A stretch of 64,000 nucleotides of DNA from Candidatus Woesearchaeota archaeon. Lineage in GTDB: Archaea > Nanobdellota > Nanobdellia > Pacearchaeales > GW2011-AR1. Where the stretch lies: contig CAYPLY010000001.1 in NCBI GenBank assembly GCA_964412025.1, positions 134,922-198,921 on the forward strand. The letters are read 5' to 3'. Positions within the stretch are counted from its first letter, which is position 1, and every line of letters begins with the position of its first letter. This document shows, one piece after another, positions 476 through 55,053 of this stretch. The notes under the pieces were generated by a model. It did not search any database. It had not been told where the DNA came from and worked only from the letters and a program-made list of their open reading frames with translations. Both the position numbers and the translations under genes were made by a program.

Positions 476-1516
476 ATGGGACTAAATATTCGAGAGATAA
501 TACCAAGAAGAGAGCTTGAACCAGGAGAGCTTCAGGACAAAGTTCTTTGTGTAGATGCATTTAATGCATTATATCAGTTTTTATCTTCAATAAGGCAACC
601 AGATGGAACCCCTTTAATGGATAATAAAAAAAGAATTACCAGTCATCTTTCTGGAATTTTTTATAGAAATATTAATCTTTTAGAAGAAGGCATGAAACTT
701 ATTTATGTGTTTGATGGAAGAGCTCCAGATTTAAAGGAAAAAATTTACAAGAAAAGAAGTGAGGCAAGAGATGTTGCCAGAGATAGATATGAGACTGCAA
801 AAGATGAATCTGATTTGGAAGGTATGAAAAGATATAGTTCTCAATTATTGAGGCTTAATGATCAAATGATAGAGGAGAGTAAGGAGTTATTAACAGCAAT
901 GGGGATTCCGGTTATTCAAGCTCCGTCTGAGGGAGAGGCACAAGCAGCACAGATGACGAGAATGAATACCAAGGTTTATGCTTCTGTAAGCCAGGATTAT
1001 GATAGTCTTCTTTTTGGGGCATCAAAGTTGATAAGGAACTTAACTGTATCCAGGAAAAGAAAAACATATAATGGATATATTGAAATAAGACCAGAGGTCA
1101 TAGAACTTGAAAAGGTATTTAACGTTTTGGAGATAAATCTTGAACAATTAATCTGTTTAGGTATCCTTGTTGGAACAGATTACAACCCAAAAGGTATTCC
1201 TAGGATAGGGCAAAAAAAGGCTTTGGATATCGTTAAAAAATATAAAGTTCCATATGAGATATTTAAAAGTGTTGAAGAGCAAATATTAAGTTTACCTAAG
1301 GAGGATAGATTTAACTGGCAGGAAATTTTTGCTTTATTCTATAAACCAAATGTCTCTAATTCAGAGTTTGAATTTAATTCTTTTAATGAAGATGCTATAA
1401 AAGAAATTCTTGTAGATAGACATGATTTTTCTGAGGAAAGAGTTCAAAGACAGATAGATAGGTTAAAAGAATTGAAAAGGAAAAATCAGCAGAAAAGTTT
1501 AGGTAGGTGGTTTTGA
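476..1516 (+). CDS. fen: Flap endonuclease 1
   Basis: DAFNALYQFLSSIRQPDGTPL, VFDG, EGEAQAA, SQDYDSLLFG, GTDYNPKG motifs; C-terminal PIP box QKSLGRWF. Confidence 0.97.
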   Translation: MGLNIREIIPRRELEPGELQDKVLCVDAFNALYQFLSSIRQPDGTPLMDNKKRITSHLSGIFYRNINLLEEGMKLIYVFDGRAPDLKEKIYKKRSEARDVARDRYETAKDESDLEGMKRYSSQLLRLNDQMIEESKELLTAMGIPVIQAPSEGEAQAAQMTRMNTKVYASVSQDYDSLLFGASKLIRNLTVSRKRKTYNGYIEIRPEVIELEKVFNVLEINLEQLICLGILVGTDYNPKGIPRIGQKKALDIVKKYKVPYEIFKSVEEQILSLPKEDRFNWQEIFALFYKPNVSNSEFEFNSFNEDAIKEILVDRHDFSEERVQRQIDRLKELKRKNQQKSLGRWF

Positions 1517-1598
1517 TGATATTATTTCTAGATAATGTTACTTTTAATAAATGGTAACAAATAGAAAGATTTATAAATAAAGAGTTCTCTAAAAACAT

Positions 1599-2024
1599 AT
1601 GTCAGAAGAATCAAATTTAAACAATAAAGTTCTTAGAAAGTCTCTAGTTTACGGAGCAAGCTATCTATCAAGAATAGTTGGAAATTTATGTCAATATGGT
1701 CTTGAAAAAGTCCCTGATGAAGGGGGGTTGAATCTTGGTTATCCTGGTGCCGCGTTAGGATTTGCTGCGTTGGATATAATTGCAGAAAACTTGGATCCGG
1801 TTAAACAAAGCGGGTACTATAAGTTGGCTAAGATTGGCGGGGCTGCTACATTTTCAGCTTTAGCTTTATCAAATTTTATTGGAGCAATTAAAGGAGATTA
1901 TGAAGGAATAAAAAATCTTCCATTTAATTTGTCTATGGCTGCAAGTTTAGGATATGATTTGAAAGAACCTGGAAAAGATTTCCTTAAAAAGTGGGATTGG
2001 ACTTTTGGGTTGAATAAAAAATAG
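1599..2024 (+). CDS. Hypothetical protein, possibly membrane-associated
   Basis: 141-aa ORF with Gly/Ala-rich hydrophobic segments; no family recognised. Confidence 0.6.
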   Translation: MSEESNLNNKVLRKSLVYGASYLSRIVGNLCQYGLEKVPDEGGLNLGYPGAALGFAALDIIAENLDPVKQSGYYKLAKIGGAATFSALALSNFIGAIKGDYEGIKNLPFNLSMAASLGYDLKEPGKDFLKKWDWTFGLNKK

Positions 2025-2036
2025 AGATTCTAGAAT

Positions 2037-2714
2037 TTATACTATACCATACTTGTTGAAGATATTTGTCATATCTCCCTGACTCACACCTAATGTCTGG
2101 CATATTGCTGCCTCACTATTTCCCCAGTTTCTATACTTCTTAAGGTAATTTATAAAATATGTATATCCTCCAACAAACTTTGGATTTGATTGTCTTTTTG
2201 CCCATCTTCTAAACTTCTTTGCAGCTCTTATCAGTTCGTTTCTTCTATCTGGAGGATTTACGTTTCCTCCTTGCCCAAGATTCCCTTTTTTTTTACGTCT
2301 TATCCATAGAATAAATCCTAGTATTACAAGAGCTATTCCCAGGATAAGGACAAATGCCTTTTCATAAACGAAGAAACTTGCTATTATAAGTAATCCGCCA
2401 ATTATCATAAGTGCTCTTGATATCCCTAATTTCCATATTATCCAGATTATCCCTATAATAATTATGAACGGGATAACCCCATAGATTATTCCATCCCCTA
2501 TACCCCAATTGTAAAAAACTCCGCTTATGTCAAAATTCGTTCTGTTAAGTCCATAAACTGCAAGGAGAGATACACAGAAAGCGATTATGTTCGAAGACAT
2601 TTTGTCTCTTAAACTTCTTCCAAGCAATAGTTGTATGAGTACAAAGAAGATTATAAACAACAATCCTAAGATCATTGTATTTGGATCTATATTGTAAAGC
2701 ACCTCTCTTAACAT
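2037..2714 (-). CDS. Multi-pass membrane protein with basic C-terminal domain
   Basis: About 5 hydrophobic helices followed by RRKKK and a soluble tail. Confidence 0.7.
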   Translation of the reverse strand: MLREVLYNIDPNTMILGLLFIIFFVLIQLLLGRSLRDKMSSNIIAFCVSLLAVYGLNRTNFDISGVFYNWGIGDGIIYGVIPFIIIIGIIWIIWKLGISRALMIIGGLLIIASFFVYEKAFVLILGIALVILGFILWIRRKKKGNLGQGGNVNPPDRRNELIRAAKKFRRWAKRQSNPKFVGGYTYFINYLKKYRNWGNSEAAICQTLGVSQGDMTNIFNKYGIV

Positions 2715-2797
2715 AATCCTGTATAGGTATTTTTGGTTTATAAATTTATTTTTTTAATTTTAGGAAGGTTTAAAATGTTTTTCTGATTTTATCTTAG

Positions 2798-3586
2798 ATG
2801 AAATCCCATCGTTCTTTTAATGTACTTGGCAATATAGCGGTCGTTAACTTTTCGGATAATACTAGTTTGTTAAATAAGAAAAAATTTGCTCAAGAGATAA
2901 TGAATAATAATAACTCTATTAAGACTGTTTTAGAAAAATCTGGGAAGTTTTCTGGTAGATTAAGAAAGATGGAGACAAAACATCTTTTAGGAGAAAGAAA
3001 TAAAGAAGTCCTGTATAGAGAAAATAATTGTTCTTTTAGGTTTAATATAGACACCACCTATTTTTCTCCAAGATTAAGTAATGAGAGGAAAGAAGTTTCT
3101 TCGTTTATAAAAAAGGATTCAAGTGTTTTAGTTATGTTTGCAGGTGTTGCTCCCTTTTCAATCGTTGTTGCAAAAAATTCAAATCCCAAGGAGGTTTATT
3201 CTAATGAAATAAACCGAGAAGCGAATAAGTACGCAGAATTAAATGTTCAGCTAAATAAAGTAAAGGATAAGATAAAATTTGTTAACGGAGATATAAAGAG
3301 AGTTGCTATTAAATTGAAAGAACAAAATAAAAAATTTGATTTTATTTTGATGCCTAGGCCAAATCTTAAGGAGAGTTTTCTAGAGCAGGCATTTATGTTA
3401 AGTAAAAGAGGAACAACCGTTTTTTATTACGATTTTTGTAAGATTGAAGAAAAAGATGAGATTATTCAGAAAGTACAAGATGAGGCTAAACTTTTTAAGA
3501 AAAAAATTAAAATATTAAATGTTAAAAATGCAGGAGAAACTGCCCCTTATAAAGTGCGTGTTAGAATTGATTTCAGGGTATTATAA
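2798..3586 (+). CDS. Trm5/Taw22 (Met-10+ like) tRNA methyltransferase
   Basis: YFSPRLSNER, VLVMFAGVAPFSI SAM motif, NEINREA, MPRP. Confidence 0.88.
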   Translation: MKSHRSFNVLGNIAVVNFSDNTSLLNKKKFAQEIMNNNNSIKTVLEKSGKFSGRLRKMETKHLLGERNKEVLYRENNCSFRFNIDTTYFSPRLSNERKEVSSFIKKDSSVLVMFAGVAPFSIVVAKNSNPKEVYSNEINREANKYAELNVQLNKVKDKIKFVNGDIKRVAIKLKEQNKKFDFILMPRPNLKESFLEQAFMLSKRGTTVFYYDFCKIEEKDEIIQKVQDEAKLFKKKIKILNVKNAGETAPYKVRVRIDFRVL

Positions 3587-4205
3587 CAATTTTGAACCCT
3601 TTTCCGTTTCTTTTTTTATACTCCTCAAAATTTTGTATATCATTATCTTTATTTAATCTGCTGATATTTTTTTCTAAAGAGAATCCATTAAATTTGTCTT
3701 TTATTAATTCCTGCAGACTGTTATACCCAAGAGTCTCATATATTGGTTTGTCTGGACTTAGATTTTTCCCATTTATTATTGTTAGAGACGATCTTTGGAT
3801 ATCTTCTCTTCCAGCATATCCTCCCTTTAAGATATAAACTTCATTTTCTCGCCTGTAGTCAATTCCCCATTTTTCTTTGTTATACAGGAAGTCAATTCCA
3901 AAGTGTAATCTGTAGTCAAAATCCTTGATTACTTTTTTTGACTTATCAAAGTTAAAGTCTTTTGAGGGAGAATGTTCTTCAATAATTAAATCGTGTTCAA
4001 TTCCTTTTAAGTTCATTAGATGCGAGGATGCTAAAGTTAAATCTAAGCAAGGGTTCATAAATCCGGTTTCTCCACTTAATAATATCTGGTTTACTGGACG
4101 TCTTCCAAAATATTTGTTTATCTCTTCGTTTGTCCAATATACTCGTTTTACTTTTTTGTCAACTTCCGAGATTATTTCCTTTGCTGAATTAATTGCATTG
4201 TTCAT
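3573..4205 (-). CDS. Hypothetical protein
   Basis: 210-aa ORF; no family confidently recognised. Confidence 0.65.
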   Translation of the reverse strand: MNNAINSAKEIISEVDKKVKRVYWTNEEINKYFGRRPVNQILLSGETGFMNPCLDLTLASSHLMNLKGIEHDLIIEEHSPSKDFNFDKSKKVIKDFDYRLHFGIDFLYNKEKWGIDYRRENEVYILKGGYAGREDIQRSSLTIINGKNLSPDKPIYETLGYNSLQELIKDKFNGFSLEKNISRLNKDNDIQNFEEYKKRNGKGFKIVIIP

Positions 4206-4243
4206 TAAAAAATAGTATTATTTGGGTTTAAAAGAGTTACTAA

Positions 4244-5554
4244 TTATAATTTTTTATCCGCTTTTATTGCAGTAGGAGCCTCTCCTCCATGCCAGGTGAA
4301 TCTTGGACGTACACGCATAGGATAAATTCTTTCAGAATTATCATCAAGCACAATAGCAGATCCGTTTAATGAAGGGAGGTCATCCATATATTGCTTTATA
4401 CTTTCCAGAAGATAACTTTGCATTATTCTATTCAGGGCTTCTAAGTCTGTTGCAGAAGTTACTCTATGGGAGATTACTATATCTGATTGAGTCATAACAT
4501 CTTTATGGATTTGACCAGGTTGTTGTGTTGCAAGTACTAACGATATTCCTGGTTGTCTGCCCTCTCTTAACAATTGAGTTAGCGCATCTGTTGCTATCGT
4601 TTTTCCTTCTAAAGGAAGGAATTCATGTGCTTCATCTATAAATAGCCATATTAAAGGGGTTTCTTTTTTTTCGGAGTAAGAAGAGTATTCAAGTCCCTTT
4701 GAAACGGCTTTGATTTCCTCTTTTTTTCTTGCATCCATTCTTTGGTTAAATAATTTTCTTGATATTAGGCTAATTACCAATGCTCTTACATTAAAACTTC
4801 CTACTGAATTATATATGCTTAAATCAAGTATTGTGGTTATTCCCGCATTAACAAGATGAGTTATCTTAGTTGGAGATATTCCTTTTTTAGAGAATATTCC
4901 CCAGGTATTCACAGCCTCAAATAACCCCACCGCAGCATTTTTTATCTCTCTGTCTGTTTTTTGATCTTTTTCAATTTCTTCTATTATATCTTCTATATCA
5001 AAACTCTTTTTGCTTTTTATTTTGCTTATTGTCCTTTCAATAAGTACTGCAACCGGGTTTATTATGTCCAATCCGAAAGTCAGAATCCAATCTTCTGCAT
5101 TCATTTCACAAACATCCAAAGCAAATTTTTCATCTGCAGGAATTCCTCTTCTTACATATTCATCATAGAATCCATAAGGTATGAATACTTTTACTTTCAG
5201 ACTTTTTGGTTTTAAATCCCATTCATGAAGCAATTCTTTGTCTTTTTCATTGGGATATTTCATTGTCCAGTATATTCCCATTGTGTCAAATATTAGTGAG
5301 GCTATATTTTGTGAGACTTCTTTTGGTAAGTTTGAAAGTTCTTCCGCAAGAACACCTAAGGTGTATGATTTTCCCGAACCACGTTTTCCAGCCACCAATA
5401 CAACATGACTTCTTATAACGTCCATGAACATTTTATTGCTTAAAGAGGTGTATTGTCCCATTTTGACAAATCCTTTTCCAATATATGCTAATCCCTTGTT
5501 TCCAAATCCTTTCTTGTCAGAGGAATTTCTCCCGGTTATAATATCATATGGCAT
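4244..5554 (-). CDS. HerA/FtsK-like (DUF87) P-loop ATPase
   Basis: Walker A GKRGSGKS, Walker B LFIDEAH, LREGRQPGISLVLATQQP. Confidence 0.88.
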   Translation of the reverse strand: MPYDIITGRNSSDKKGFGNKGLAYIGKGFVKMGQYTSLSNKMFMDVIRSHVVLVAGKRGSGKSYTLGVLAEELSNLPKEVSQNIASLIFDTMGIYWTMKYPNEKDKELLHEWDLKPKSLKVKVFIPYGFYDEYVRRGIPADEKFALDVCEMNAEDWILTFGLDIINPVAVLIERTISKIKSKKSFDIEDIIEEIEKDQKTDREIKNAAVGLFEAVNTWGIFSKKGISPTKITHLVNAGITTILDLSIYNSVGSFNVRALVISLISRKLFNQRMDARKKEEIKAVSKGLEYSSYSEKKETPLIWLFIDEAHEFLPLEGKTIATDALTQLLREGRQPGISLVLATQQPGQIHKDVMTQSDIVISHRVTSATDLEALNRIMQSYLLESIKQYMDDLPSLNGSAIVLDDNSERIYPMRVRPRFTWHGGEAPTAIKADKKL

Positions 5555-15344: not shown

Positions 15345-15413
15345 TGATGCCCCGATAGTTCAAAAGATATAAATATCTAGAACTCTCGGAAACGCTGATG
15401 CCCCGATAGTTCA
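15345..15413 (+). repeat. 18-bp direct repeat TGATGCCCCGATAGTTCA (15345-15362 and 15396-15413); duplicated tRNA-Glu 5' end
   Basis: Exact match read from the sequence; the second copy overlaps tRNA positions 1-14. Confidence 0.9.
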
Positions 15414-15571
15414 GAGGCCAAGAACGCCACCCTCTCAAATCATGCCGGAGTTCAATCGATGAGATAATAATTCCAGCCTTCTCTAAGGCAGGCTAGTTAG
15501 TTTTATCGCCTTATATTTTCTTAGGGCGATGGAGTACGGTGGTAACCCGAGTTCGAATCTCGGCCGGGGCG
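15400..15571 (+). tRNA. tRNA-Glu(CTC) with a 99-nt intron (15438-15536) at position 37/38
   Basis: Cloverleaf with anticodon stem CCACC/GGTGG, anticodon CTC at 15434-15436, T arm CCGAG-TTCGAAT-CTCGG; BHB with central helix CTCT/GGAG and 3-nt bulges; near-identical to tRNA-Glu(TTC) at 63550. Confidence 0.92.
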
Positions 15572-15744
15572 TTTATCCTTAGGTTTAACATAGCTATATA
15601 AAACGAATAATTCTGCGTAGAAATGATGCAGTTTTTGAACAGAGAGGTGAAATAAATGGTTTGGTGCTTAGAAAGGGAGGTGAACTAGTTAAATTCTTAA
15701 AAGCTAAACAAAATATTTATAAATTACATATATATCTAATATAT

Positions 15745-15897
15745 ATGCCTAAAAAGCAGATAATTGTAAAATTTGAGGGGTCTGAGATTCTTGAGAGAAA
15801 AGCTTCTAAGTTTGGAACTGGTGCTCATGTAATTATTCCTAAAGAATACATAAACAAAAAAGTAAAAATTATTATGGAGGATGAAGATGACAAGTAA
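15745..15897 (+). CDS. DUF2080-like (AbrB-like) small protein
   Basis: ERKASKFGTGAHVIIPKEYINKKVKII motif; ATG at 15745 preferred. Confidence 0.75.
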   Translation: MPKKQIIVKFEGSEILERKASKFGTGAHVIIPKEYINKKVKIIMEDEDDK

Positions 15898-18800
15898 AAA
15901 ATATTTTTTTGCTTTAATCAGCATAATTTTGATAACACTCTTATCCTATGAGGTTTTAGCAGGGACTAATGTTCCAGATTGTGGAATAACAATCAATATC
16001 TCAGGACAATATGAATTAAACGCGGGAATTTCTGGGACAGCAACTTGTCTAACAATTAATACAAGTAATATAGAACTAGATTGCAAAGGAAATACTATTT
16101 CTTATGGTTCAGATGGAGTTAATGGAAGAATTGGAATATCTGTTGCCCTTGGAACAGTTTATCTTGAAAATATCACAATAAAAAATTGCATAATTCAAGA
16201 CACAAATCCTGCTGGAACCACGGGGTATGGAATATATGCATTAAGAACATCTAATTCATATATAATTAACAATACAATTAATACAAGCGGAACTGCTACA
16301 AATCACGGGATTTATTTATCTACTGCAAGTCAAAATAATCTTCTTGAAAATAATACCATAAATGCTTATGGAAGCACTACAGGAAACTATGGGATTTATT
16401 TAATTTATCAATCAAATAATAACACAATTAGAAACAATGAAGTAAAGGCAACAGGAACAACAACAAGCTATGCACTCATGCTTTATAGCTCAGAATATAA
16501 TTTAATAGAAAACAACAATTTTTCAAGTTACACTCTTTTAACAACAGGAAATTCAGATATGAATGTAGTTTATTTATACTATGGTTCAAGATATAATATT
16601 TTAAGAAATAATTACATTTATTCAGATGCTGAAGCAAGAAATTACCATATTTATCTAAATTTAAATAATAATTATAATATCATTGCAAATAATACTATAA
16701 TTCCAAATGATGATGAAGGAACAAACCCTGGAATTTATATTCTTGGTTCTGATTACAATCTTGTAGAGAATAATACCATTAGAACAAATGGAACAACAGC
16801 CAATTATGGGGTTTGGTTAGGAGCATCTTCAACAGGAAATATGATTAATAAAAATAATATTATCACAAATGGAACTACAACCAACAATTACGGAATTTAT
16901 TTGGTAAGTGCACTTTACAATAATATAACAGAAAATCAGATCTCCTCAAATGGATTAACAACAGGTAATGCAGGAATAACTTTATCAAGTGCCCAAAGAA
17001 ATTACCTTGCAAGAAATAATATTTCTACAAGTGGGACAACAACAGGATATGGAATTTATTTGACTGGTTCTGATTATGACACAGTAGAAGATAATGATAT
17101 TTCTACATTTGGAACAAGCACTGCAAATGATGGAATCTATTTAATCTCTTCTACAAACAATAACATAATAAACAACAGAATAACTGCAAATAGCACCTCT
17201 TCTGGAAATATTGGTATTGCTTTATATACCTCAACAGGAAATTCTTATGTTTATAATAATACTATAAAAACTGATGGAACAACTACAAATTATGGTATTT
17301 TATTACAGACTGCAAATAATAATTCGATAGTAAATAATCAAATATCAACCAGTGGAACAACTACAACAAATCATGGAATTTATCTTTATATAAGTGCAAA
17401 TGCAAACAAAATCTACTATAATAATATCTCTACATATGGCACAACAACAAATCATGGGATTTCACTTAGCACAACTTCAGATGGAAATGAAATTGTTGGA
17501 AATTATATAATAGCTAATGGCTCAACAACAGCCTCCGCAACAACAACAAATAATTTTGGAATTGCTGCTGCTACAAGTTGTTATAATAATCTTATGGAAA
17601 ATAATACAATACTAAATTCCGGAGGAAGGTATAACTATGGTATATATATTTCAGTAGAATCTGGATATTCTACAATTAGAGGAAATAATATTACTACTGG
17701 AGGAAGTGGGGCCACAAATGCAGGAATTTATCTTTCAGAAAGCAGAAACAACCTTCTAGAAGAAAATATAATCTCTACTTCAGGTTCTGCTACAGATTAC
17801 GGTATTTATCTGTATTCTAATGCAAAATATAATTTTGTTAAGAAAAATAATATTACAACCTCAGGAAGTACTAATTCTTATGGAATTCTTCTTGATGCAG
17901 TAATTCCAAACTTCCCCCACAATAATTCTTTTCAAGAAAATAATTTTATTAGTATTGCTGGAACAGAATTTAGATTTGCTGATGCAGAAATAGATGAAAA
18001 TTATTTAATTAGCCAGATTATTGACAGTTACTTATTTACTGGAATTGGAAGCAAAATGATTGTTAGAAATGACTCTGCAGGAGAAATAAAATTCTTAGAT
18101 AGATTAACTGGTTCTGGAACAGGATTTAGTGATGATGTATACATTTTAGAGAATTATGCTTTTATTGATTCGAGTATCCCAGGATTAAACAAGTCAGCAG
18201 AGATAACCATTTATAATTTACCAACAACTTCAAATGAATTACAAATTTACAGGAATGGTATAATCTGCAGTGATTGTTTTAATTTAACTTCAATGCAAGC
18301 AGGAAATGTAACATTTAATGTAACACAAGGAGGAGGATACTCAATTAATTCCTCAAGTTCATCTCCTTTAATAGAATTAGATTTCCCTGAAAATGATTAT
18401 TTAACAAATCAGCAAAATATTAATTTTAATTTTACAGCTAGAGATGATTCTGTAGGAGATTTAAATTGTAGCATTTATATTGATTCTATTTTAAATCAAA
18501 CCAATTCAACAACTCAAAATAATACTCTAACTAATTTTGCTGCTAGTGGATTAACTGAAGGAAATCATAACTGGAATATTGAATGTTTTGATTCAGCAGG
18601 AAATAGAAATATTTCTGAAACAATAAATTTTACAATAACAATTTCACAATCATCCTCATTATTTAATTATCCAGAGAATAAATCTTATTTTAATAATTTA
18701 GACTTTATATTGTTAAATTATACTGTTTTAGATTTAGATTTAAAGATAATGACTGCTTGGATTTATGGGGATGAAATTCTTCTAAATACAACTTCAGGAT

Positions 18801-21800
18801 TAACTAATGGTTCATCTTTAGTTTACAATTGGACAAGTTTAGATTTAGGACAATATAACTGGTCTATAATAATCTGGAATGGAATAAAGAACTCTTCTAT
18901 TGAATATTCTTACTTTAATAATATTAATTTAACAATAAATTGTGAAGCAGGAGGAGATTATCTTGAAGATCCAACTGTTTTAATTCAAGGAAGAATAAAT
19001 GACAGTAGCGGGATAGTTTCATTAAGTTCACAAATAATTAATATTTCTATTTACAATGATTCCACAGAGGAAATAATCACTTCTTCAAATATAACCACAG
19101 AATCAAATGGTGTATTTAATAGTATATTTCCTGGATTGGAAATAGGAAATTACACTGTTTATACAAAAGTTAATTATCAAGGAATTGAAATAAATAGTTC
19201 AGACTCATTTAAAATTTCTCTTGGATATGAAGCAGGTTACAATGCAGGATTTATTGCTGGAAATGAATCAGGATATATTTCTGGATTTGATTATGGTAAT
19301 ATCACAGGATTTAATTTAGGAAATATCACAGGATTTATACTTGGAAACAATACTGGTTTCACATTAGGAAATACAACTGGATTTGTATACGGTAACCTCA
19401 CAGGATTTGTTTTAGGAAATTCAACTGGTTACATTTTAGGTAATGCAACTGGATTTACATTAGGAAATTATACCGGGTTTATATTAGGAAATCAAACAGG
19501 ATTTATAATAGGAAATATTTCAGGTTTCAATCTTGGTAATTCAACCGGTTTTACACTTGGAAATTATACTGGATTCATATTAGGAAACATTTCAGGATTC
19601 TACTTTGGAAACCAGACAGGTTATACTACAGGTTACAATGCAGGATTTATTGCTGGAAATGAATCAGGATATATTTCTGGATTTGATTATGGTAATATCA
19701 CAGGATTTAATTTAGGAAATATCACAGGATTTATACTTGGAAACAATACTGGTTTCACATTGGGCAACTCAACTGGTTATACCTTGGGATTTAACACAGG
19801 TAATATAACCGGATTTACTCTAGGTAATACTACCGGCTTTGTATACGGAAATAATACTGGTTATATTTTAGGATTTAATACAGGCAACTTAACAGGCTTC
19901 ACATTAGGAAACACAACTGGCTTCGTTCTTGGCAACTCTACAGGTTATGTTTTAGGAAATGCAACTGGCTTTGTATATGGTAACACAACAGGATTCATAT
20001 TAGGAAACACAACGGGATTTGTATATGGAAATATCACTGGATTTGCTTTGGGTAATTCAACAGGATTTACACTTGGAAATTTAACAGGTTATATTCTTGG
20101 AAATCAAACAGGTTATAACGCAGGATTTACAACAGGAAACACAACTGGATTTAATCTAGGAAATACTACAGGTTTCACATTGGGCAACTCAACTGGTTAT
20201 ACCTTGGGATTTAACACAGGTAATATAACCGGATTTACTCTAGGTAATACTACCGGCTTTGTATACGGAAATAATACTGGTTATATTTTAGGATTTAATA
20301 CAGGCAACTTAACAGGCTTCACATTAGGAAACACAACTGGCTTCGTTCTTGGCAACTCTACAGGTTATGTTTTAGGAAATGCAACTGGCTTTGTATATGG
20401 TAACACAACAGGATTCATATTAGGAAACACAACGGGATTTGTATATGGAAATATCACTGGATTTGCTTTGGGTAATTCAACAGGATTTACACTTGGAAAT
20501 TTAACAGGTTATATTCTTGGAAATCAAACAGGTTATAACGCAGGATTCAGCACAGGAAACACAACTGGATTTAATCTAGGAAATACTACAGGTTTCACAT
20601 ACGGAAATCTTTCAGGATTTGATCTAGGTAATGCCACGGGTTATACCTTGGGTTATAATGCTGGTGTTAATGTTAGCAATCGCACTTCAGCATCCCTAGT
20701 CTTGGATAAGATTGCAAGTTTGCAAAATATAACAAATGGAACTATTTCATATAATGTAACTTTAAGATTAACAAACAAAGGAGGAAGCAATTCAACAAAT
20801 GTTAACATAACAGATTTAGATTATGGTTCTAACTTTACAATTGGAAATTTAACAGCAGGAGAATCAATTACAAGAAGCTATCTTATTAATTTCACAAGAA
20901 ATATGACAACATATTCAAATGCAACATCAATTGCTCATGCATATGGTATTGATTCTTATTCATCTGGACAAATTTTGGCAAACTCTAGCTCAATGAATTT
21001 ACCTGTCCCATCAAATGAATCTGGGCAGCAATTAACTTTGATTAAGAATGTATTTTATATTAATCAAACATTCACAGATGTAAATTATACTGTTAGTTTT
21101 GAAGTTATTAATTCCGGAGGATCAGATTTAACAGGGATTACAATAATTGATGACGATTTGGGTATTTCTGATGTAATAAGCTTGAGTAAAACACAAAGTT
21201 ATACCTACTCGGGATCATTAATAATATCTAAGAATCAGGATAATAAAGAGCAAATATTTTCAATAGCAAGAGGAACTGTAAATGCTGTTATTTATTCTTC
21301 AAATCAAATAAAAGTTTTAATTCCAGGATATGGTGGAGGTCCAAATGATGTAAGCATTAATGCTCCTACATCTGTTTTTAATAACACCAATTTCAATGTG
21401 GATATAACTGTGAAGAATAAAAATAAAGACATAGGCCAGGACTTTGTTGTAACTTATTGGCTCTTGAGCAATGACGAGATTTCAATATATTCAACTGGAG
21501 CTCAAACTCTTTATGTTGGAGGAAATGATAATACCAATGCAACTACAATTGTATTCTTATCTCCTGCAATTAATGGAACATATAAAATAAGGGCAAATGT
21601 GAGCGGAACAGGAGTAAGTGTTCAAGCTACTGCTTTTTCAACAATTCTTGTTACGTATCCTTCAAATGAAACTGCAAATGAAACTCCAGTAAATCCTCCG
21701 CACGGAGGAGGTGGAGGTAGCAGAATAAGCTGTGTATATATCTGGGAGTGTGGTTCTTGGAGCCTATGTGCAGATGATGGAACTCAATCAAGAACATGTA

Positions 21801-22510
21801 CTAATACAGGAACCTGTACAGGAATAGAAGGAAAACCAGCAGAAAAAATGAATTGCTTAGAGGTTTCTTCTGATATTGTATTAAAATTAAGTCAATTAAA
21901 TTTAACTGAAAATCAAAGTTTAGAATTTAATATTGATTTGATTGAGAAGAAATCCTATGAAAACAAAGATATACAGATAACATATTCTATCTTTAATAAA
22001 ACAAATATAGAGGTATTCACTAAAACAGAGACTCGTTCACTTGAGACAAATATAAGTTATAAGGAGATTTTGGATGAATTAATGCTTACTCCAGGAGAAT
22101 ATACATTAAAAGTACATATATTCTATGGCAACTCTCAAAGTTCAGAAGAGGTACAATCATTTATTATAAAAGAAGAAGGTAAAAATAATATTGGAAGTAA
22201 ATTACTTCTTGAGTTAACACCCGAAACAAATTTTTTAACTTACTTGGCAATATTTGTAATCCTTATCTTATTAATATCGCTGTTTGTGATTATGAAAAAG
22301 AAGAGAGATGTTGATGAAGTTGACTTATTGATAAAAGAAGGAAAAAGGAATATTGACAATGAAAATTTTGATGAAGCATTAGATGTCTATCCTGTTCTTA
22401 AGAGCTTATATAAACACAAATATAAAGGGGACCCATCTGCTTATGAAAAGATTACTTCTTACTCTCAATTTATTTTAAAAAGTATTAAGGATAAATTAAA
22501 AAAAGACTAG
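15881..22510 (+). CDS. Giant (2,209 aa) membrane-anchored surface protein: signal peptide, parallel beta-helix (NosD/pectin-lyase-like) repeats, Ig-like segments, ~480-aa GxxxG repeat, TSP1-like Cys motif, C-terminal TM
   Basis: Repeats GIYL...N.I.NN.I; G[FY]xxGNxT repeats at residues ~1115-1595; CGSWSLC...QSRTC; hydrophobic LAIFVILILLISLFVIM followed by KKKR. Confidence 0.85.
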   Translation: MKMTSKKYFFALISIILITLLSYEVLAGTNVPDCGITINISGQYELNAGISGTATCLTINTSNIELDCKGNTISYGSDGVNGRIGISVALGTVYLENITIKNCIIQDTNPAGTTGYGIYALRTSNSYIINNTINTSGTATNHGIYLSTASQNNLLENNTINAYGSTTGNYGIYLIYQSNNNTIRNNEVKATGTTTSYALMLYSSEYNLIENNNFSSYTLLTTGNSDMNVVYLYYGSRYNILRNNYIYSDAEARNYHIYLNLNNNYNIIANNTIIPNDDEGTNPGIYILGSDYNLVENNTIRTNGTTANYGVWLGASSTGNMINKNNIITNGTTTNNYGIYLVSALYNNITENQISSNGLTTGNAGITLSSAQRNYLARNNISTSGTTTGYGIYLTGSDYDTVEDNDISTFGTSTANDGIYLISSTNNNIINNRITANSTSSGNIGIALYTSTGNSYVYNNTIKTDGTTTNYGILLQTANNNSIVNNQISTSGTTTTNHGIYLYISANANKIYYNNISTYGTTTNHGISLSTTSDGNEIVGNYIIANGSTTASATTTNNFGIAAATSCYNNLMENNTILNSGGRYNYGIYISVESGYSTIRGNNITTGGSGATNAGIYLSESRNNLLEENIISTSGSATDYGIYLYSNAKYNFVKKNNITTSGSTNSYGILLDAVIPNFPHNNSFQENNFISIAGTEFRFADAEIDENYLISQIIDSYLFTGIGSKMIVRNDSAGEIKFLDRLTGSGTGFSDDVYILENYAFIDSSIPGLNKSAEITIYNLPTTSNELQIYRNGIICSDCFNLTSMQAGNVTFNVTQGGGYSINSSSSSPLIELDFPENDYLTNQQNINFNFTARDDSVGDLNCSIYIDSILNQTNSTTQNNTLTNFAASGLTEGNHNWNIECFDSAGNRNISETINFTITISQSSSLFNYPENKSYFNNLDFILLNYTVLDLDLKIMTAWIYGDEILLNTTSGLTNGSSLVYNWTSLDLGQYNWSIIIWNGIKNSSIEYSYFNNINLTINCEAGGDYLEDPTVLIQGRINDSSGIVSLSSQIINISIYNDSTEEIITSSNITTESNGVFNSIFPGLEIGNYTVYTKVNYQGIEINSSDSFKISLGYEAGYNAGFIAGNESGYISGFDYGNITGFNLGNITGFILGNNTGFTLGNTTGFVYGNLTGFVLGNSTGYILGNATGFTLGNYTGFILGNQTGFIIGNISGFNLGNSTGFTLGNYTGFILGNISGFYFGNQTGYTTGYNAGFIAGNESGYISGFDYGNITGFNLGNITGFILGNNTGFTLGNSTGYTLGFNTGNITGFTLGNTTGFVYGNNTGYILGFNTGNLTGFTLGNTTGFVLGNSTGYVLGNATGFVYGNTTGFILGNTTGFVYGNITGFALGNSTGFTLGNLTGYILGNQTGYNAGFTTGNTTGFNLGNTTGFTLGNSTGYTLGFNTGNITGFTLGNTTGFVYGNNTGYILGFNTGNLTGFTLGNTTGFVLGNSTGYVLGNATGFVYGNTTGFILGNTTGFVYGNITGFALGNSTGFTLGNLTGYILGNQTGYNAGFSTGNTTGFNLGNTTGFTYGNLSGFDLGNATGYTLGYNAGVNVSNRTSASLVLDKIASLQNITNGTISYNVTLRLTNKGGSNSTNVNITDLDYGSNFTIGNLTAGESITRSYLINFTRNMTTYSNATSIAHAYGIDSYSSGQILANSSSMNLPVPSNESGQQLTLIKNVFYINQTFTDVNYTVSFEVINSGGSDLTGITIIDDDLGISDVISLSKTQSYTYSGSLIISKNQDNKEQIFSIARGTVNAVIYSSNQIKVLIPGYGGGPNDVSINAPTSVFNNTNFNVDITVKNKNKDIGQDFVVTYWLLSNDEISIYSTGAQTLYVGGNDNTNATTIVFLSPAINGTYKIRANVSGTGVSVQATAFSTILVTYPSNETANETPVNPPHGGGGGSRISCVYIWECGSWSLCADDGTQSRTCTNTGTCTGIEGKPAEKMNCLEVSSDIVLKLSQLNLTENQSLEFNIDLIEKKSYENKDIQITYSIFNKTNIEVFTKTETRSLETNISYKEILDELMLTPGEYTLKVHIFYGNSQSSEEVQSFIIKEEGKNNIGSKLLLELTPETNFLTYLAIFVILILLISLFVIMKKKRDVDEVDLLIKEGKRNIDNENFDEALDVYPVLKSLYKHKYKGDPSAYEKITSYSQFILKSIKDKLKKD
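19233..19761 (+). repeat. 133-bp identical direct repeat (19233-19365 and 19629-19761), offset 396 bp
   Basis: Read directly from the sequence. Confidence 0.85.
19751..20600 (+). repeat. 420-bp tandem duplication (unit 19751-20170, repeated from 20171)
   Basis: Lines 19801-20100 equal 20221-20520; only 3 mismatches seen near 20128/20548. Confidence 0.9.
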
Positions 22511-22619
22511 TTTTCATAGATAAATATCACTAAGTTAAACCTTAAGTTGGATTTACAATTGATAAAAAGAAACATTTAAATAGTAATATCATTTGATATT
22601 ATAGTAATTTCGTGTTAAA

Positions 22620-22931
22620 ATGGAAACTCAAATAGTAAAAAAGAATAAAAGTTACATTGAAACAAATGATATAGCTAGAAGCCCAACACTTCAAACAGTC
22701 CTTATGGTTGAAAAATTCATAAAGGATAATTCAGGAGAATACAAAAAAACAGATTTATTCAAAAATCTCCCAAAAAAAGTAATGTGGCAAACTTTTCAGG
22801 TTATAATGGAGTATTTAGAAGAGAATTTGAGGGTAGCTTATGATAATGAAGGATACATTGTTTATATCTGGAATCCAGAGTTTGTGGAGAGATTCAGAAA
22901 TAAACCAGAATTAGAATGGAATGCAAAGTAA
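22620..22931 (+). CDS. Putative antitoxin / winged-helix-like protein
   Basis: 103 aa (RSPTLQTVLMVE...KKVMWQTF); overlaps the downstream RelE-like gene; role inferred from context. Confidence 0.6.
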   Translation: METQIVKKNKSYIETNDIARSPTLQTVLMVEKFIKDNSGEYKKTDLFKNLPKKVMWQTFQVIMEYLEENLRVAYDNEGYIVYIWNPEFVERFRNKPELEWNAK

Positions 22932-23236
22932 ATTTTATTGATTTGGAATTGAAGAATGCCTTTGAATATTTAGAAAAATCAGATCCAAGACTCTTCAAAG
23001 ACGTAAATAAAGCAATACAAGAAATATGCCAAAATTCTTTTTGTGGAAGAAATGTAAAGAAAAAATTAATTCCTAAAGAGCTTGTTCAAAAGCATAAAAT
23101 AGACAATCTTTGGATTTATAACTTGAGGAAAGACTGGAGACTTTTATATTCTGTTGGTAGAGACGAAATTGAACTTATAGCAGTTATTCTTGATTGGATG
23201 GATCATAAAGATTATGAAAAATTATTCAAATTCTAA
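22916..23236 (+). CDS. RelE/ParE-like toxin
   Basis: 106 aa; basic GRNVKKKLIPK, LWIYNLRKDWRLLYS, ILDWMDHKDYE pattern. Confidence 0.68.
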   Translation: MECKVNFIDLELKNAFEYLEKSDPRLFKDVNKAIQEICQNSFCGRNVKKKLIPKELVQKHKIDNLWIYNLRKDWRLLYSVGRDEIELIAVILDWMDHKDYEKLFKF

Positions 23237-23366
23237 ATTTTAACCAATCTGTTACTAAGTTAAACCTTAGGTTGAATTTACGGCCGGGGCGTGAAACCCT
23301 TCGAATTCCACGTCACTACACTCAGAGACAAGTATCTTTAAATAGGGCGTCCGAGATTAATACAGA

Positions 23367-23975
23367 ATGGAAAAAATAGCAATTGATGTTGTATTATTGC
23401 CCTCTGAAAAAATGATGGATAAAGCGATAGAAATAAATAGAGAATTACTTAAAAAACATGATAAAAAGATTATCTTGGATAAACAAAAATGTTTACCTCA
23501 TATTTCTTTATGTATGGGATGCATAGATAATAAAGATATACCTGAAATAGAAAAAGTTCTAAAAGATATCTCTTCTAAATTTTCAAAAATGAGCCTAATT
23601 ATTGATAGATTGGAACCAGAAACAATTCCAACAGGAAAAATAGTTTCAGGAATGGCAATTAAGAATACAAAAGAGTTACAATTATTTCATGAGATGGTAA
23701 TGAAAAGATTATGGAATTTTTTGTCTTATGATGTAAAGATACCTATGTTATTTAATCCCCCTGAAGTGGAAGAAGTCACTCTTTACTGGATAAAAGATTA
23801 TGCCAATAAATACAATAATCCCTCTTCTTTTCATCCACATATAACTGCTGGATTTGGAGAAACAGATGAATTTCAATTTCCAATTCAGTTTACTGCTTCA
23901 AAATTAGCTGTGTGTCAGCTGGGTAATTATTGTACTTGCAGAAAAGTTTTATTTTCTCATAACCTTAAAGAATAA
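23367..23975 (+). CDS. 2H phosphoesterase (2'-5' RNA ligase superfamily)
   Basis: Two HxS/T motifs: PHISL and PHITA. Confidence 0.78.
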   Translation: MEKIAIDVVLLPSEKMMDKAIEINRELLKKHDKKIILDKQKCLPHISLCMGCIDNKDIPEIEKVLKDISSKFSKMSLIIDRLEPETIPTGKIVSGMAIKNTKELQLFHEMVMKRLWNFLSYDVKIPMLFNPPEVEEVTLYWIKDYANKYNNPSSFHPHITAGFGETDEFQFPIQFTASKLAVCQLGNYCTCRKVLFSHNLKE

Positions 23976-54225: not shown

Positions 54226-55053
54226 TTATAAGCTATCCAAGGGGGATTTTATCTTTGATAAATCTTTTGTGGATACATGTGTGTATACCTCAGTTGTTTT
54301 TAAATCAGAATGTCCTAGCAATTTTTGTATATGTCTTATATCTGTGCCCTGCTCTAATAAATGTGTTGCAAAACTATGCCTTAACATATGTGGAGTTGCT
54401 TTAATTCCTGCTTTTTTTCCAGCTTCATCCAAAACTTTCTGGACGGACTTTTTTGTGTATTTTCCATCACGTCCTTCAAAAACATATTCTGTGTGGAAAG
54501 TATTATTACTGTAGTATTTCAGTAAATCTAATTTTAATGCATCTGAAATAATAGTTACCCTATCCTTTTTCCCTTTTCCCTTTTTGACATTAAGAATATT
54601 TCTCTCAAAGTCAATATCTTTTCTCTTTAAATCAATTAGCTCCTGAAGCCTCAGTCCTGAAGAGTAAAGAAGTTTTATTATCAGTTTATGCTTTAAATTG
54701 TCTGTTAAATTAATCATTTCTTTAATTTTTTCTTTTGAGATAACTTTTGGAAGTTGTTTTTCTTTTTTCTTTATAGGAACTTCCTCAAATGAAAAAGATT
54801 TTCTTAATATCTCTCTGAAAAAGAAACTTATGGAGGCATACTGCAACCTTGAGGAGTTTATACTCAAATTTTGTGATAATAAATATAATTTAACACTGTC
54901 ATTTGATAGATTAAGTCTACTTTTGGAAAGAAAATCTAAAAATTTTCCTGTGTGATATACATAAGATTTGATTGTTTGGTTAGAAAATCCCTTTAAAATA
55001 CATGTTTCTTTTAGTTTTTTTAGATATTCTTCTTTATCTGAAGTATAATTCAT
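54226..55053 (-). CDS. Tyrosine recombinase, XerA/integron-integrase-like, 275 aa
   Basis: N-terminal GFSNQTIKSY SAM-like domain; catalytic R (GLRLQE), K (KGKKDR), HxxR (HMLRHSFATH), H (LGH), Y (EVYTHV). Confidence 0.95.
   Translation of the reverse strand: MNYTSDKEEYLKKLKETCILKGFSNQTIKSYVYHTGKFLDFLSKSRLNLSNDSVKLYLLSQNLSINSSRLQYASISFFFREILRKSFSFEEVPIKKKEKQLPKVISKEKIKEMINLTDNLKHKLIIKLLYSSGLRLQELIDLKRKDIDFERNILNVKKGKGKKDRVTIISDALKLDLLKYYSNNTFHTEYVFEGRDGKYTKKSVQKVLDEAGKKAGIKATPHMLRHSFATHLLEQGTDIRHIQKLLGHSDLKTTEVYTHVSTKDLSKIKSPLDSL

Follow-up and report, generated by a model that had tools for sequence, protein, structure and literature searches.

Features at the tRNA-Glu(CTC) locus

We analyzed a 64,000-nucleotide stretch of DNA from a Candidatus Woesearchaeota archaeon (the window, C1:134922-198921 of assembly G000, which comprises 812,799 bp or 0.81 Mb in 21 contigs with 32% G+C). 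The subject of this work is a block of genes within it, referred to here as the islet, which follows the 3' end of a tRNA-Glu(CTC) gene, is closed by a second copy of the last bases of that tRNA and carries no integrase gene. Coordinates are window positions unless a contig (C2, C3) or a locus (L-number) is given. The left-end (LE) and right-end (RE) modules were located by pattern search and with nhmmer profile models, and the orthologous region was taken from nine congeners using ackA as anchor. The features at the locus were as follows.

15399-15572, + strand: tRNA-Glu(CTC), the likely integration target, found with aragorn -i; 99-nt intron (about 15439-15537); its 3' end is the left repeat
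15561-15572, + strand: left 12-bp direct repeat CGGCCGGGGCGT (attL core), formed by the tRNA acceptor 3' strand, the discriminator and 1 nt
15573-15700, + strand: LE module with near-palindrome TTATCCTTAGGTTTAAC, AT-rich box CATAGCTATATAAAACGAATAA and two tandem units of about 33 nt (15623-15688)
15745-15897, + strand: DUF2080 gene, 50 aa (PF09853, 26.2 bits, cut-off 21.5; NCBIfam NF033496 'transposase-associated', 49.3 bits)
15881-22510, + strand: giant surface-protein gene, 2,209 aa (Pfam Beta_helix, NosD and Big_13; translation)
22522-22567, + strand: internal decayed RE copy CACTAAGTTAAACCTTAAGTTGGATTTAC, GC-rich core lost (nhmmer RE model, E=2.2e-9)
22620-22931, + strand: putative antitoxin gene, 103 aa, overlapping the toxin gene by 16 nt
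22916-23236, + strand: YoeB/RelE/ParE-like putative toxin gene, 106 aa, with weak family matches
23242-23292, + strand: RE, CCAATCTGTTACTAAGTTAAACCTTAGGTTGAATTTA and the right 12-bp repeat at 23281-23292 (attR core) (nhmmer, E=5.6e-16)

Neither default ARAGORN nor Rfam reported a tRNA at 15.5 kb; the gene was missed because of its 99-nt intron and is detected by aragorn -i. Introns are common among the tRNA genes of G000, and an intron-bearing ortholog of this tRNA adjoins ackA/DUF2061 in eight congeners. A reading of the window made earlier from its sequence alone (the sequence-only reading) had observed that the last bases of the tRNA recur 7.72 kb downstream. This was confirmed: CGGCCGGGGCGT is present at 15561-15572 and 23281-23292, where 0 matches were expected (100 shuffles), and the entire G000 assembly contains exactly these two copies. 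As in tRNA islands, the islet is bounded on one side by the intact tRNA and on the other by a displaced copy of the tRNA 3' end. The sequence upstream of the right repeat, AGGTTGAATTTA, is T-arm-like and resembles, with mismatches, the T-arm of tRNA-Glu (GAGTTCGAATCT), and immediately within the two 12-bp repeats there is an imperfect inverted repeat of 22 nt (15572-15593 and 23255-23276). Base composition was uninformative (28%-30% GC in the islet, 31% in the flanks).

The cargo agrees with what had been described from the sequence, namely a DUF2080-like gene and a 6.6-kb surface-protein gene between the repeats and no integrase; Pfam, NCBIfam and the translation bear this out, and no PF00589 match was obtained among the open reading frames (ORFs) there. 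DUF2080 has been described as an antitoxin domain (PMC10440598), and the anti-sigma factor CalpT carries it as its C-terminal domain (bioRxiv 10.1101/2024.05.08.593097). The stop of the DUF2080 gene overlaps the start of the giant gene, the product of which has an N-terminal hydrophobic signal or transmembrane segment, followed by beta-helix/NosD repeats and an Ig-like domain (Big_13), a stalk of about 480 aa composed of G-x-x-x-G-N-x-T repeats and, at the C-terminus, a transmembrane segment and a basic tail. A giant membrane-anchored protein of this beta-helix/Ig architecture likely serves to attach the archaeon to host cells or to a surface. The tract of the gene encoding the glycine repeats (19230-20660) is built of periodic 24-nt repeats and contains two near-identical blocks of about 420 nt; in the G002 assembly a 100-N gap falls within this tract, and the differences between G000 and G002 mostly cluster there.

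The two remaining genes had been called an antitoxin/RelE-like pair. What holds of this is the arrangement, two small overlapping genes of which the second is YoeB/ParE/RelE-like; the family scores of the putative toxin stay below the curated cut-offs. It gave 24.4 bits with PF06769 (cut-off 27), 21.4 bits with PF05016 (cut-off 23) and 20 bits with TIGR02116 (cut-off 51.8; E=6e-4), and matched YoeB 2a6q in PDB with E=0.0037, so that the scores agree in direction (YoeB, ParE, RelE) and every one is below its curated cut-off. The putative antitoxin had no sequence match in Pfam, NCBIfam or PDB and is 96%-100% identical in G018 and G002. As in type II toxin-antitoxin (TA) systems, the two genes overlap, with the antitoxin first, and travel as a unit, the same pair being present in G018. 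The TA pair probably stabilises the block.

Near-identical copies in other genomes

Near-identical copies of the islet (99.6%-99.85%) were found in three other assemblies. The DNA of G000 and its congener G002 is 76.8% identical in the left flank and 76.3% in the right flank, compared with 99.8% in the islet, where there were 14 mismatches over 7,453 nt, 12 of them in the internal repeat tract and two outside it. At the protein level, the products of the flanking genes are 65%-89% identical and those of the DUF2080, giant and TA genes 98.7%-100%. On the left the two genomes last differ near 15516, a position within the tRNA intron; on the right, identity ends 2 nt past the right 12-mer, from where G002 continues straight into the diadenylate cyclase (DAC) gene.

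The second copy, on contig C98 of G241 (8,683 nt), corresponds to 15560-23292 of the window (7,733 nt) at 99.845% identity and without gaps. The match extends exactly to the final base of the right 12-mer, beyond which come a new LE and an antitoxin/MazF-like gene pair. This contig (L068, CAYVFA010000098.1) is binned in a metagenome-assembled genome (MAG) labelled Smithella sp., almost certainly through misbinning, given that the sequence is archaeal and begins at the tRNA-Glu 3' end. The third copy, on contig C56 of G008, shows the left end only and covers the initial 718 nt of the islet (99.6%) behind another tRNA, called Gln(CTG) by ARAGORN. This tRNA (L038 1463-1534) is a hybrid: its 5' part and anticodon arm are Gln(CTG)-like, unlike the tRNA-Gln of the window, and its last 13 nt are identical to those of tRNA-Glu(CTC), which leaves a mismatched T stem. 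The junction of the two parts lies within the shared T-loop GTTCGAATC.

Since near-identical copies stand in other contexts, coincidence and conserved synteny are excluded, and since the borders are fixed at the repeat beside unrelated right flanks, the copies point to site-specific recombination rather than homologous exchange. As is typical of tRNA islands, the islet is a discrete unit which is present or absent among relatives and has its boundaries at the repeats. The copies in G002, G241 and G008 strongly support the proposal of the sequence-only reading that the islet is a mobile unit of its own, without an integrase and delimited by the duplicated tRNA 3' end, and they show that it has moved between species in recent times. 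The synteny comparison which it had recommended gave a region that is not syntenic across the genus and a hypervariable site, differently filled in congeners, contrary to a conserved region with a coincidental match.

Conserved ends and composite structure

The LE directly follows the core and has the form TWATCCTWAGGTTTAAC-ATAGCTAYATAAAACGAATAA, then about 90 nt including the two tandem units of about 33 nt, while the RE has the form CCAATC..CACTAAGTTAAACCTTAGGTTGAATTTA followed by the core. This LE is common to cassettes with unrelated cargo; the ends, not the cargo, define the cassette family. One LE and two REs were detected in G000 with nhmmer, the additional RE being the decayed copy at 22522-22567, which lies between the adhesin and TA modules. 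In G018, where the TA pair follows different cargo, the same RE junction stands before it, and two RE copies bracket the pair. The internal RE copy in G000 and the two RE copies around the TA pair in G018 therefore show that the islet is composite, made up of a DUF2080/adhesin module and a TA module which were once separate and now move together.

A structured RNA in the LE was considered and rejected. Minimum free energy folds hinted at hairpins, and there was no covariation above shuffles in 12 copies, 67.6% being paired compared with 69.7% in shuffles; Rfam gave noise only.

Other cassettes at this site and at other tRNA genes

A search of other contigs for the same att site, also recommended earlier, found none elsewhere in the G000 assembly and located cassettes with the same 12-mer on contig C11 of G008. 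There, three copies of the 12-mer bound two other cassettes that have the same LE; the distal cassette also has the same RE, and the array is closed by the same RE and core as the islet. The cargo consists of a Barstar-like gene with membrane proteins in one cassette and a DUF2314 gene with membrane proteins in the other. The corresponding site in G018 contains a polysaccharide lyase and, behind it, the same TA pair (about 93% DNA identity), that in G011 a decayed mini-cassette and a ParE-type TA pair, and that in G017 a secreted protein. The G020 site has a DUF2080/giant-gene pair (62% and 44% identical, respectively) and no recognisable LE or RE.

Copies of the LE occur in G008 (three times) and in G009. 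Four of 23 congeners contained the genus-type LE together with the Glu core, a combination that did not turn up in any of the 191 further genera of the family that were sampled. With a looser LE pattern, matches were obtained in 11 metagenome contigs (Hainich groundwater and Joint Genome Institute samples) and in further Woesearchaeota and Nanoarchaeota MAGs, where the LE follows tRNA-Ser(TGA), tRNA-Arg(GCG), a tRNA called Ala(TGC), or tRNA-3'-end remnants such as CTCGTGGGGGCGT. Single-gene cassettes of about 0.9 kb end in GTTAATCCTTAGGATTAAG-TAATCGTG-GGGGCGT. Across the family the shared core is GGGGCGT (7 bp), compared with 12 bp in the G000 islet. In the array at locus L061, which belongs to another genus, two end types alternate, and the LE and RE types match within each cassette, which fits both ends being joined in an excised form. 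Viral contigs gave no match either to the RE-core-LE junction pattern or to the LE pattern. The islet is a member of a family of integrase-less, tRNA-anchored cassettes with conserved LE and RE that form tandem arrays in Woesearchaeota.

A further array was seen in a Nanoarchaeota MAG (L059, about 1260-4850, reverse strand as analysed). Named from motifs alone, its genes encode an ATPase-like protein, a PemK/MazF-like toxin and a two-gene unit, and two of its REs share a palindromic stretch of about 50 nt before the core.

Proposed mode of insertion

We consider it likely that 15573-23292 is a discrete non-autonomous integrative element which was inserted site-specifically at the 3' end of tRNA-Glu(CTC). 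In the mechanism that we propose, the joined ends of the element would form an attP-like site composed of the RE (GTTAAACCTTAGGTTGAATTTA, T-arm-like), a GC-rich core and the LE. The core would be the part shared with the acceptor 3' strand of the tRNA, and the LE would contribute the near-palindrome and a conserved arm of about 125 nt. Recombination between this site and the tRNA end would keep the tRNA intact and duplicate the core, and repeated insertions would give rise to tandem arrays. Such a cycle suggests a circular intermediate, and some route between cells would have to carry the element from one species to another. As the element carries no recombinase of its own, one encoded elsewhere must move it, presumably acting in trans, and this is most likely a tyrosine recombinase. 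In favour of the mechanism, the array of L061 has at its distal end a PF00589 integrase of 440 aa immediately behind an LE, the sole integrase found in such a position.

Several observations weigh against this mechanism. No integrase with the att site of the islet was found in G000, where nhmmer also detected no LE or RE copy outside the islet, and XerA was the sole tyrosine recombinase seen in G002. The joined ends do not show the classical pair of inverted core-binding sites around an overlap of 6-8 bp. The hybrid tRNA on G008 contig C56 implies an exchange inside the T-loop and not in the 12-mer. The adhesin cargo could be old at the tRNA-Glu locus, because G020 has the diverged DUF2080/giant-gene pair in the absence of LE and RE. 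The integrase of the L061 array has no close homologue in the genus of G000. Finally, all genomes compared are MAGs, with the G002 and G008 assemblies being 83% complete.

Three tyrosine recombinases (PF00589) are encoded in G000, at C2:81880, at 54226 in the window and at C3:80778. The first is XerA, which is present in nearly all relatives. The second, an Xer paralog (54226-55053), had been suggested in the sequence-only reading as a possible mover of the islet; nothing ties it to the islet, from which it is 31 kb distant, and it was not found in G002 or G008, both of which carry the element and are incomplete as assemblies. It is unlikely, in our judgement, that one of these host Xer-type enzymes does the work, with the arrays representing an integron-like or IMEX-like (integrative mobile elements exploiting Xer) chromosomal platform at tRNA ends and not decayed satellites. 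XerA occurs in every genome, and G002 shows XerA alone yet has a freshly acquired element. The paralog scored 224.9 bits with NF040815 ('tyrosine recombinase/integron integrase') and 203.6 bits with the integron-integrase model TIGR02249, and like integron arrays, those described here consist of many short cassettes of one to a few genes, often TA pairs. The latter score, however, is below the cut-off of 265, and the region of the IntI-specific insertion was unmatched. Moreover, the borders are GC-rich tRNA-end cores, not G|TTRRRY, no dif- or attC-like organisation was seen, and one array, L061, has its own integrase.

Movement by something other than a tyrosine recombinase, making use of the near-palindromic ends through an HUH transposase in trans or through a homing-type endonuclease and repair, appears highly improbable. 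The near-palindrome, centred on CCTTAGG, does stand at both ends in the same orientation, the right copy of the repeat moves with the element, and a LAGLIDADG ORF lies upstream of the array-bearing tRNA in G008 and G018, with a similar ORF tail on G008 contig C56. Against this, Y1 transposase (PF01797) is absent from G000, G002 and G008, no LAGLIDADG ORF is present at the site in G000 or G002, and homing predicts variable conversion tracts, whereas in three contexts the observed borders stay fixed at the repeat; a duplicated tRNA 3' end is, in addition, the signature of an integrase. Resolvase gave only weak matches below the curated cut-off in the same three genomes, each of which does encode tyrosine recombinases. 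That the region is ordinary conserved chromosome with a coincidental 12-bp match, or an assembly or binning artefact, can scarcely be entertained: the sequences are indeed all MAG contigs, with one copy in a Smithella-labelled bin and a 100-N gap in the giant-gene repeats of G002, but the 12-mer is not expected by chance, the region is non-syntenic across the genus, and single contigs of G000 and G002 carry the block with diverged flanks on either side, while on G241 contig C98 it runs into a different cassette, with the same border bases.

Beyond site-specific insertion at tRNA-Glu, a wider interpretation can be put forward tentatively, and we hold it to be rather less than an even prospect. 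Woesearchaeota might possess a new integron-like cassette system, in which an RE of about 40 nt and an LE of about 125 nt define recombinase-less cassettes, with tandem capture at the 3' ends of several tRNAs and exchange between species. A dedicated recombinase, possibly host-encoded and Xer-like, would then be involved, and the system would supply the giant adhesins and the addiction and defence modules of these reduced-genome symbionts.

Comparison with known systems

The known systems closest to the islet and its relatives are tRNA-targeting islands, tycheposons and cis-mobilizable elements (CIMEs), with integron arrays comparable by analogy alone. CIMEs and other integrase-less satellites, such as those related to ICESt elements of Streptococcus, are flanked by att sites, have no recombination genes and depend on a recombinase supplied by another element. 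The cassettes resemble CIMEs in having functional-looking att sites and in standing in tandem with related elements, but no cognate autonomous element was found in G000 or in the genus, and only the L061 array has an integrase behind a similar LE.

Islands that target tRNA genes by means of tyrosine integrases, as catalogued by Islander (PMC4383910), are alike in their insertion at the tRNA 3' end, the intact tRNA, the displaced fragment remaining as a repeat, the sharp boundaries and the variable presence among relatives. In contrast to these, the islet has no integrase, its exact repeat is very short (12 bp), and its right end of about 40 nt and left end of about 125 nt recur in many small cassettes whose cargo is unrelated. 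Tycheposons of Prochlorococcus are tRNA-adjacent cargo elements of streamlined genomes which encode their own tyrosine recombinase (bioRxiv 10.1101/2020.12.28.424599). In both cases successive integrations push older elements inward, and partial tRNAs and degenerate remnants are found; the units described here differ in that nearly all are without a recombinase, many comprise just one or two genes, and they reside in DPANN archaea.

Integron arrays, including archaeal integrons and clusters of attC sites lacking integron-integrases (CALINs), have been reported in Nanoarchaeota (bioRxiv 10.1101/2022.02.06.479319). They share with the present arrays tandem short cassettes without a recombinase, a richness in TA pairs and imperfectly palindromic border sites. 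The borders differ, being tRNA-3'-end cores with LE and RE and not attC (R''-L''...L'-R'), and the anchor is a tRNA and not intI/attI. On manual inspection, attC sites (RYYYAAC ... GTTRRRY hairpin, with L''/L') were not seen at the junctions, where the order of motifs is the opposite, and no IntI-type integrase was detected beside the array.

DPANN archaea combine tiny genomes with a dependence on host contact, and how they gain and exchange genes is little understood. Here, a 6.6-kb surface-protein gene moves as a precise unit, without a mobility gene, between species about 23% apart in core-gene DNA. Cassette movement of this kind would be a concrete and testable route for the turnover of host-attachment and addiction or defence genes in symbionts, and the RE-core-LE junction together with the tRNA 3' end offers a compact pair of sites for tracing the recombinase responsible.

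Neighbouring sequences and additional observations

To the right of the mobile block lies an accessory segment with the following features.

23293-23975, + strand: accessory segment outside the mobile block, with a 58-nt spacer, the partial core GGGCGT (23345-23350), CCGAGATTA and the 2H gene
23367-23975, + strand: 2H-phosphoesterase-like gene, 202 aa (PF13563, 20.7 bits, below cut-off)

The 2H-phosphoesterase-like gene converges on the DAC gene. It had been expected that in relatives lacking the islet tRNA-Glu would be followed directly by this gene. No such empty site was seen; the gene is accessory, present in G000 alone among 40 genomes (G000 and 39 relatives), and G002 is without it. The sequence GGCGTCCGAGATTA which precedes it is identical to the junction of tRNA-Glu and the first cassette in G018. 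Because a partial att core lies ahead of it, the 2H gene is probably another acquired unit, and the segment before it hints at a third, older unit.

Two other integrases were examined and set aside. The 426-aa integrase on C3 is part of an element of about 11 kb with repeats matching tRNA-His and therefore uses a different att site. This element (C3, about 70,500-81,870) adjoins tRNA-His and has the integrase gene at its far end, with the 5' region of the gene repeating tRNA-His-end sequences in the style of SSV-type (Sulfolobus spindle-shaped virus) integrases. The integrase on contig C39 of G017 is 32% identical to that of L061; nhmmer found no LE or RE nearby, an LE-like word on the contig falls inside a coding region, and the gene belongs to an unrelated integrated element.

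Upstream of the islet, a 17-nt copy of the tRNA-Glu 5' end (GATGCCCCGATAGTTCA) is present at 15346-15362 (cf. 15397-15413), 51 nt upstream of the genuine one, in a 46-nt stretch that is absent from G002. In place of this stretch, G008 and G018 have a LAGLIDADG-type ORF of 321 aa which runs into the 5' exon of the tRNA, and the stretch in G000 may be the scar of such a gene. The ORF in G008 and G018 (LAGLIDADG_3, PF14528, 30.8 bits; L022 5740-6705 and L021 3400-4365) is directly upstream of the array-bearing tRNA and overlaps it. On G008 contig C56 (L038, about 1400-1470), the tail of an ORF upstream of the tRNA resembles the C-terminus of this LAGLIDADG_3 ORF.

The acceptor stem of tRNA-Glu(CTC) (15400-15406 with 15563-15569) has an A7.C66 mismatch in G000, G002 and G017. 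The acceptor sequence of G005 differs, and in G008, G011, G018, G020 and G022 the corresponding pair is G7-C66.

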